Positions 55,526-56,218 of a DNA stretch of 64,000 nt are shown here, piece by piece. The position numbers and the translations under genes were made by a program. Source of the stretch: Escherichia phage Pu-Krd-SF1; sequence record PQ249395, one strand, 5' to 3'. A model generated the notes under the pieces. The model did no database searches. It was not told the DNA's origin and was given only the letters and a program-made list of their open reading frames with translations. Positions within the stretch are counted from its first letter, which is position 1. The number at the start of each line of letters is the position of its first letter.

Positions 55526-56218
55526 TTATAAATTAACTGTTTTTCTAAGTATTCTTAGTTTGTACATTGATAATCCAGTAGCTTTAGAAGCATCTTTCAT
55601 ACATTTATACTTAACACCATTTACTTCTATAGGTTTAGCAGCTGGGTTATTAGCTCCTGAATTATCTGGCATGTTATCTTTAATTTTCTGAATAGATTTA
55701 GCGGAATGTTTCCTTCCATACATGCCGTTATTTTTACCCGATTGATTGATTGAATGTAATCTTTTAGCTTCTTCAGTCCATTTCGTTGGGTTCATTCTTT
55801 TAGTTTTACTAATTTTATTTCCCCATGTAATTGGACGACTTTTCATGAGTTTTGACATATATTGTTTATGTTCTTCCGTATGGTGTTTTCCGTAAAATGG
55901 ATTACCTTCGCCGGATTGAAGTTCTGCCATTTTACGACGTTCCCATGCGTAAGATTTATTGACGTGTCTTTCATGAGTATTTGAATTCATCCCCATACAT
56001 ATAACAGCTTTAATTATACCGTAATGGTTTGGATGAATTTTAGCTAAAAGTTTATGGGCTATAAAATGTTCTTCAGCCGTTAGTTCTACTAAATTACACT
56101 TATCATTTGTACCACCCATACATCTAGGAATTATATGATGTGTTTCAGTGTATCCATTAAGGCGAGCCCGATTCTGGGCTCTATTAATTAAATTATCATA
56201 TATTAATTTATAATTCAA
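55526..56218 (-). CDS. free-standing HNH homing endonuclease (230 aa, TTG start)
   Basis: HNH motif TETHHIIPRCMGGTNDKCNLVELTAEEHFIAH plus repeated NUMOD-like G-x-x-N-P-x-Y/G-K motifs; start overlaps uvsW stop. Confidence 0.65.
   Translation of the reverse strand: MNYKLIYDNLINRAQNRARLNGYTETHHIIPRCMGGTNDKCNLVELTAEEHFIAHKLLAKIHPNHYGIIKAVICMGMNSNTHERHVNKSYAWERRKMAELQSGEGNPFYGKHHTEEHKQYMSKLMKSRPITWGNKISKTKRMNPTKWTEEAKRLHSINQSGKNNGMYGRKHSAKSIQKIKDNMPDNSGANNPAAKPIEVNGVKYKCMKDASKATGLSMYKLRILRKTVNL

Follow-up and report, generated by a model that had tools for sequence, protein, structure and literature searches.

A minus-strand open reading frame (ORF) of 230 amino acids (aa) in Escherichia phage Pu-Krd-SF1 (record PQ249395; the 64,000 nucleotides [nt] analyzed are hereafter called the window) lies at 55526..56218 between the helicase gene uvsW and its neighbor uvsW.1, and very probably encodes a free-standing homing endonuclease of the T4 Mob type, carried on a cassette that supplies uvsW with a new tail, expressed from a coupled TTG start, and spread by homing with marker exclusion. 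The coordinates, strand, length, and TTG start that an original prediction, made from the sequence alone, had given for this ORF were all verified, as was its TAA stop. The anatomy and homology of the element, its insertion boundaries, the conserved position of its start, the purifying selection on it, and its linkage to a rewritten patch of uvsW can be read directly from the genomes compared here. The bare gene is already in public annotation; what is new is the coupling of its start, its reuse of the uvsW tail, its internal hairpin, and the linked patch. It would add a sixth, uncharacterized, locus-specific Mob-type endonuclease to the T-even set, one that is present in the classic phage T6.

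Domain architecture and identity

The HNH motif and repeated NUMOD motifs named in the original prediction were borne out by hidden Markov model and BLASTP searches. The protein matches PHROG 655, "homing endonuclease" (3.9e-60), and Pfam NUMOD3 (E 7.6e-14; 51.8 bits versus a cut-off of 20.4) over 2 stretches, the best motif covering residues 94-122 (55853..55939, minus) with a second copy further downstream; the Pfam HNH match is weak (16.2 bits, below the cut-off of 21.4). By BLASTP, its 106 N-terminal aa are 51% identical to T4 MobE (E 2e-32), rising to approximately 75% over the first 60, and no similarity to MobE was found beyond this stretch. The 2 genes are approximately 72% identical at the nucleotide level over the first 190 nt or so. 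The catalytic motif occupies residues 27-55 (HHIIPRCMGG...N42...EEH51FIAH55; 56054..56140, minus), and alignments of 55 and 50 relatives show no variation at H28, N42, H51, or H55, with Y3, Y23, E25, H27, and H28 invariant or almost so in the family alignments.

An alignment-based AlphaFold model has a predicted local distance difference test (pLDDT) score of 89, and the N-domain alone scores 93 and is modeled as 2 strands followed by a helix, the beta-beta-alpha order. The top Foldseek matches of the N-domain are HNH nucleases (Cas8-HNH, McrA, Gme, IscB, and the Cas9 HNH), all of them weak (E at least 0.14). Residues 157-216 (55571..55750, minus) resemble the DNA-binding domain of I-TevI by phmmer (PDB 1i3j, E 0.006) and by Foldseek (1i3j_A, probability 1.00, target-normalized template modeling [TM] score 0.52); the corresponding Pfam family, I-TevI_DNA-bd, is matched below its cut-off (14.7 versus 27 bits). 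This structural evidence is weak but consistent with a Mob-type HNH enzyme. The protein joins the shared N-terminal HNH domain to a C-terminal half of its own, as Mob members do, and by sequence we assign it as a Mob-type free-standing HNH homing endonuclease with a predicted NUMOD3/helix-turn-helix DNA-binding half.

This layout recalls I-HmuI and I-TevI, modular enzymes in which an HNH or GIY-YIG domain is combined with NUMOD linkers and a helix-turn-helix domain, although the structural matches to them are weak and they lie within group I introns, whereas the endonuclease here is free-standing on a 689-nt insert too small for an intron. A group I intron-encoded enzyme was considered and rejected, as the insert has just 11 nt besides the ORF, and all relatives that lack the endonuclease have uvsW and uvsW.1 as separate genes. 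A scan of window positions 1..64000 at Rfam gathering thresholds returned no intron match, and no match at all, a null that carries little weight because the td and nrdB introns expected from annotation went undetected as well. The annotation of a near-identical record shows endonuclease ORFs dividing td and nrdB, a sign of group I introns, and Rfam presumably misses introns with large ORF insertions. Several public records label orthologues of the uvsW-linked gene "group I intron endonuclease" or "GIY-YIG"; these labels are incorrect.

A TTG start probably coupled to the end of uvsW

The 502-aa helicase gene uvsW (56215..57723, minus), the upstream partner in the proposed translational coupling, ends ...GTG ATG AAA GAG GTT AAA CTT TGA. 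The endonuclease TTG (56218..56216) takes its first T from the end of CTT and its remaining TG from this TGA (56217..56215), and the resulting TTGA overlap (56215..56218, minus) is a putative termination-reinitiation site. A GAGG Shine-Dalgarno sequence (56226..56229, minus) stands 7 nt upstream of the TTG, within the E-V-K-L codons of the replacement uvsW tail. The original prediction had argued that, with no in-frame ATG before the catalytic motif, translation must begin at this TTG, and the reading frame agrees: the frame has no ATG before codon 34, which lies past the catalytic HH (codons 27-28), and an in-frame TAA read from the sequence (56222..56224, minus) lies 2 codons upstream of the TTG, which is therefore the sole possible start ahead of the HNH motif. 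A UvsW-endonuclease fusion produced by frameshifting was rejected on the grounds of the same TAA and the lack of a slippery site.

The main evidence for the start comes from comparison across lineages. The orthologue group (54-70% identity, 224-233 aa) is separated from other HNH/NUMOD3 proteins by a gap from E 1e-68 to 1e-35 in protein searches, and in the phage collection 73 of 73 matches at E 1e-40 or below cover at least 80% of the query, those listed overlapping or abutting a helicase gene. IMG/VR, scanned with both the endonuclease and UvsW.1, yielded no more than 2 close carriers and 14 loci, and the GenBank phage collection was the more useful source. We inspected the junctions of Klebsiella phage Roth21, Gaprivervirus UPEC01, Dhakavirus PSD2002, Proteus Bragavirus PM2, and 3 metagenomic contigs (L107, L108, and L109) alongside the window, and all of these orthologues, the metagenomic ones included, lie between uvsW and uvsW.1. 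The start and the uvsW TGA form a four-base NTGA overlap in 8 of the 8 independent lineages, with TTG in 4 (the window, UPEC01, PSD2002, and L109), GTG in 2 (PM2 and L107), and ATG in 2 (Roth21 and L108). A GAGG or AGGTGG Shine-Dalgarno sequence precedes every one of the 4 TTG starts by 7-8 nt, neither ATG-start lineage has a clear one, and the orthologous proteins all start MNY or MKY. Since the overlap is conserved whether the codon is TTG, GTG, or ATG, this pattern supports an overlap beyond chance and a TTG that is a genuine, coupled start. The three start codons at this unvarying NTGA, some with a Shine-Dalgarno sequence and some lacking one, also form a clean natural series in which to study how termination-reinitiation keeps the expression of toxic selfish nucleases low.

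Public records truncate orthologues at an internal ATG, with loss of the catalytic HH (UPEC01, 1165..1860; UFV-AREG1, UniRef A0A173GAE0), because the true start is a TTG, and the GenBank start in UPEC01 is almost certainly wrong; for annotators, the lesson is that the true start is not an ATG and that both calls are short. Were translation to begin at codon 34 after all, the first ATG of the ORF and the equivalent of the ATG that opens the UPEC01 coding sequence, the product would be a nuclease-dead DNA-binding protein. We consider this extremely improbable, since residues 1-33 hold conserved positions (the invariant or nearly invariant Y3, Y23, E25, H27, and H28), 1 of the 3 variable codons there changes an amino acid, every lineage has an open frame from the overlap onward, and the variation among ATG, GTG, and TTG falls exactly at the overlap position.

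The TTG could also be what is left of a lost ATG in a decaying, non-functional ORF that is no longer expressed. TTG is a weak start, the 12 free-standing endonucleases of T4 use AUG with one GUG exception (PMC2988022), and many T-even endonuclease genes are defunct, among them I-TevIII in T4 and, with its premature stop, segE in the window. However, we judge decay to be quite unlikely in view of the alleles themselves: 8 of the 8 T6-type alleles compared are full length, with 693 nt, a TTG, and one terminal stop, and of their 32 variable codons 25 vary only synonymously against 7 with an amino acid change, which indicates strong purifying selection. The catalytic residues are likewise invariant, non-ATG starts sit at the overlap in 6 of the 8 lineages, and the strong Shine-Dalgarno sequence in each TTG lineage argues for a maintained design. 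We infer from these patterns that the gene is functional and maintained, with a predicted nuclease activity.

The original prediction mentioned an I-TevIII with a TTG start elsewhere in the window, and this was found: an I-TevIII-like ORF of 269 aa at the nrdB intron position (30464..31273, plus) is full length and begins with TTG. An AAGAGG Shine-Dalgarno sequence and a perfect late-promoter consensus, TATAAATA, at 30429..30436 lie upstream of it, and the protein opens with NYRKIW, similar to the NYKLIY of the Mob N-terminus.

Insertion into the last codons of uvsW

In endonuclease-free T4-type phages the junction reads ...GTA ATG AAA ACA GTT AAT TTA TAA GGGCTTCGGCCC TTTGGAGAAAAAG ATG, with a 28-nt spacer between uvsW and uvsW.1 that contains a tetraloop hairpin. 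That the 2 genes are neighbors where the endonuclease is missing, as the original prediction had stated for T4, is true of these phages, and clean empty junctions are seen in L087, L088, LH2, and OES_C-2. Relative to them, the window carries an insertion of 689 nt (55541..56229, minus) between ATGAAA and ACAGTT of uvsW, with a 3-nt AAA ambiguity; in the alignment with T4 the insert sits 4 codons before the original uvsW stop, at this AAA microhomology. The gene has thus been inserted inside the 3′ end of uvsW and not in the spacer. The cassette supplies a new uvsW ending, GAG GTT AAA CTT TGA, which carries both the Shine-Dalgarno sequence and the TTG. At its other end, because 689 is 2 modulo 3, the ORF enters the displaced uvsW tail in the original frame: its last 4 codons and stop (T-V-N-L-TAA; 55526..55540, minus) are the original uvsW 3′ end, and the protein closes with ...RKTVNL at the former uvsW TAA. 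The tetraloop hairpin, GGGCUUCGGCCC (55514..55525, minus), now lies directly 3′ of the endonuclease stop, as in endonuclease-free phages it lies directly 3′ of the uvsW stop, and uvsW.1 follows (55270..55500, minus; 76 aa, with its ATG at 55500 and a GGAG Shine-Dalgarno sequence at 55507..55510), its product matching Pfam UvsW-1 at 1.7e-30 in a profile search.

The new uvsW tail (KEVKL, AAAGAGGTTAAAC) nearly matches the uvsW tails of PM2 and L109, which fits acquisition of the cassette from another lineage. The host uvsW tail is duplicated at the 3′ end of the endonuclease in PM2 and UPEC01 and, in a diverged form, in PSD2002 and the window; no such duplication was found in Roth21, L107, L108, or L109. 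We therefore rejected tail duplication as a universal rule and regard it as lineage-specific, and its absence from these 4 lineages shows that it is not a mechanistic target-site duplication.

At the downstream end, the endonuclease stop overlaps the uvsW.1 ATG in 7 of the 8 lineages, forming a translational relay, the exception being the T6-type arrangement of the window, which retains the T4-type spacer, hairpin, and GGAG.

Expression signals

A GC-rich hairpin (GAGCCC-AGAAUC-GGGCUC, approximately -13 kcal/mol; 56164..56181, minus) extends from +38 to +55 relative to the first base of the TTG and is the most stable 36-nt segment of the gene. Hairpins occur at the same position in all 8 lineages and in T4 mobE, despite different sequences and encoded residues, and in mobE transcript levels are kept down by this hairpin, which has been mapped as a weak intrinsic terminator (PMC2790892). 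Upstream of the endonuclease on this strand, the only perfect T4 late-promoter consensus (TATAAATA; 58372..58379, minus) lies ahead of segE; a consensus scan, which does not exclude other promoter types, found none between the uvsW start and the endonuclease. The promoter of uvsW itself is embedded in segE (PMC2988022). With no perfect late-promoter consensus within uvsW, the gene probably depends on the uvsW transcript, from which its coupled expression is probably at a low level.

Folding also predicted a long-range pairing of 11 base pairs in the mRNA between 56130..56140 and 56232..56242 (minus; AUUAUGUGAUG with CAUCAUAUAAU), which involves uvsW codons N-Y-V-M and endonuclease codons H-H-I-I, encloses the Shine-Dalgarno sequence, the TTG, and the hairpin, and is strengthened by 2 carrier-specific synonymous changes in uvsW. 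The stem was not reproduced in the other 7 lineages, and we dropped it as a conserved control.

Distribution and existing annotation

The window represents a T6-like Tequatrovirus, and from 55000 to 58400 it differs by 1 base from Escherichia phage Pu-Krd-SF6/SF7, diverging further along (window coordinates equal those of the Pu-Krd-SF6/SF7 records minus 58). A copy at least 95% identical to the ORF occurs in 47 of approximately 500 closely related Tequatrovirus records (approximately 9%), a total that includes some RefSeq/GenBank duplicates. Carriers include T6 (T6ORF179, "hypothetical"), PST ("mobD/MobE"), ACG-C40, HY03, and Pu-Krd-SF6, which annotates a "homing endonuclease" at exactly these coordinates. 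Most carrier records use that label, and the "mobD" and "MobE" of PST are names by similarity only. The T4 reference has no such ORF at this locus, in keeping with the original prediction. It shows uvsW as one gene of 587 aa, because of a known sequencing error that fused uvsW and uvsW.1 (PMC1524935, PMC6486255). The idea that the endonuclease split an ancestral single uvsW in 2 was rejected, as the split is found in every endonuclease-free T4-like phage examined; it is documented as universal (PMC1524935, PMC6486255).

Sporadic presence among close relatives with clean empty sites is, at the level of sequence comparison, a selfish pattern. On the other hand, the strictly conserved locus, the chained translation from uvsW through the endonuclease to uvsW.1 in at least 6 genera, and the purifying selection on the gene are also what might be expected if the nuclease had been domesticated as a partner of UvsW and UvsW.1 in recombination or repair. 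Such a role seems to us improbable, and slightly more so than decay, given that the gene is missing from all but a small minority of closely related Tequatrovirus records and leaves clean empty sites in close relatives, that it belongs to the mobile Mob family, and that it is linked to a foreign flanking tract of the kind typical of homing.

A linked tract of uvsW and the candidate target

That tract, in the uvsW 3′ end immediately before the insert, covers 115 nt (56236..56350, minus), the rewritten stretch also being counted as 122 nt. When 5 carrier and 3 non-carrier T4-type phages were compared over uvsW, uvsW.1, and beyond, all 31 fixed differences fell within 56236..56350 and none downstream. 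A dense patch in its distal part, 56302..56350, rewrites the UvsW segment KPKSANxKKKYV to VSKSKTSSKKYS, a segment that is otherwise conserved across genera down to its synonymous sites. The patch is found in 47 of 47 carrier records, the endonuclease without the patch in none, and the patch without the endonuclease in 4 (LH2 and OES_C-1/2/3). All 4 return to T4-type sequence after the patch and have a clean empty site; in LH2 and OES_C-2, which are natural recombinants, the rewritten segment (VVSKSKTSSKKYS) gives way to T4-type sequence approximately 50 nt later.

If the enzyme cuts the conserved uvsW segment, then the patch would be a protected allele conferring candidate cleavage immunity, and it would parallel the polymorphic nrdB site of MobE. 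We see this as a possibility worth holding, although one that is more apt to prove wrong than right: the patch could be a hitchhiking polymorphism, donor sequence or a pre-existing polymorphism of the recipient carried along by simple linkage, and the main alternative is that the insertion junction itself could be the target. If the patch does mark an immunity site, it would illustrate clearly how a homing endonuclease can mold the protein that its host gene encodes. Immunity to SegE was also considered as the function of the patch and rejected, since Kadyrov and colleagues (1997) reportedly placed the SegE cut near the 5′ end of uvsW and not near its 3′ end.

Taken with the anatomy described above, the homing scheme that we favor, with its predicted nuclease activity, coupling efficiency, hairpin function, and target site, would run as follows. 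A 689-nt cassette entered a T4-type genome 4 codons before the end of uvsW, giving uvsW an E-V-K-L-TGA ending with GAGG and an overlapping TTG and letting the ORF use the TAA of the displaced uvsW tail. Ribosomes finishing uvsW would restart at the TTG and yield low-level translation, which may be limited further by the hairpin at +38, where mobE has its mapped internal terminator. In a mixed infection, the enzyme would nick or cut the uvsW/uvsW.1 region of phages that lack the gene, and repair would copy the gene with flanking uvsW into these recipients, that is, homing with marker exclusion. The rewritten patch, 85-130 nt upstream in uvsW, may then be the protected version of the target site. 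The scheme suggests that uvsW 3′ alleles are subject to marker exclusion in crosses of T6 with T4 or T2.

Several observations weigh against this scheme or parts of it. Roth21 and UPEC01 carry an orthologue and yet keep the KPKSAN segment unchanged, and PM2 differs from it at 2 residues only. The hairpin in the window is followed by GCCUUAAUGG, a poor U tract, which makes a terminator role doubtful. A literature search found no published description or test of the endonuclease.

A broader joint reading may be offered tentatively, and we rate it as rather doubtful, a little below the immunity of the patch taken by itself. The family may be specialized for translationally coupled gene pairs, with a relay from uvsW to the endonuclease to uvsW.1; it would seize the overlapping stop and start that normally couple uvsW.1 to uvsW and, at its own 3′ end, either rebuild a second coupling signal or reuse the last codons and stop of the host gene. 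In the T6 type, self-protection would have forced the rewriting of 7 residues of UvsW, and LH2 and OES_C would be immune escapees. If this joint reading were true, a core recombination helicase would be changing its protein sequence under direct pressure from a selfish gene.

Comparison with MobE and SegE

The closest parallel is T4 MobE, a free-standing HNH homing endonuclease encoded between nrdA and nrdB (Wilson & Edgell 2009, PMC2790892) that nicks a neighboring gene whose sequence differs in carriers (PMC2988022, PMC2790892). The start of mobE overlaps the nrdA stop (UAAUGA), and the gene has no promoter (PMC2988022, PMC2790892); weak coupled expression with marker exclusion, as proposed for the uvsW-linked gene in the original prediction, is a published pattern for this paralogue (PMC2790892, PMC2988022). 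The likenesses include the overlap of the start with the stop of the essential gene upstream, which is UUGA in the endonuclease, a homologous N-terminal HNH domain, the lack of a promoter of its own by consensus scan, a GC-rich hairpin in the same place approximately 30 nt inside the ORF, and sporadic occurrence among T-even phages. The differences are equally clear: mobE occupies nrdA/nrdB and starts with AUG, whereas the endonuclease occupies uvsW/uvsW.1 and starts with TTG; T4 MobE has 141 aa, whereas the endonuclease has 230, with 2 NUMOD3 motifs and an I-TevI-like tail; and the endonuclease is inserted in the last codons of its upstream gene and ends on the original stop of that gene. By analogy, the endonuclease appears to share the expression logic of MobE with an even weaker start codon.

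We rejected the view that the endonuclease is simply one of T4 MobA-E, as the T4 mob loci are 39/60, alpha-gt, nrdG/nrdD, nrdC.11, and nrdA/nrdB (PMC2988022), none of them at uvsW, and T4 has nothing there. No mobE was found between nrdA and nrdB of the window, at approximately 29590..29645 (29649..29701 in record PQ759886).

T4 SegE resembles the endonuclease in flanking uvsW, its published target (PMC2988022), but it belongs to the catalytically unrelated GIY-YIG family, lies on the other side of uvsW (inh/uvsW), and is nonsense-truncated in the window. The minus-strand gene order of the window is segE, uvsW, endonuclease, and uvsW.1, with segE (57726..58343, minus) adjoining uvsW. An A at 57809, where Pu-Krd-SF6 has G, turns Q179 into a premature TAA (57807..57809, minus) and leaves an ORF of 178 aa as against 205 aa in T4 and SF6; this copy of segE is probably defective. 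Among T6 records, MH550421 (1715..3222) alone annotates uvsW in 2 pieces, uvsW and uvsW-B, which is probably due to a frameshift or sequencing difference.

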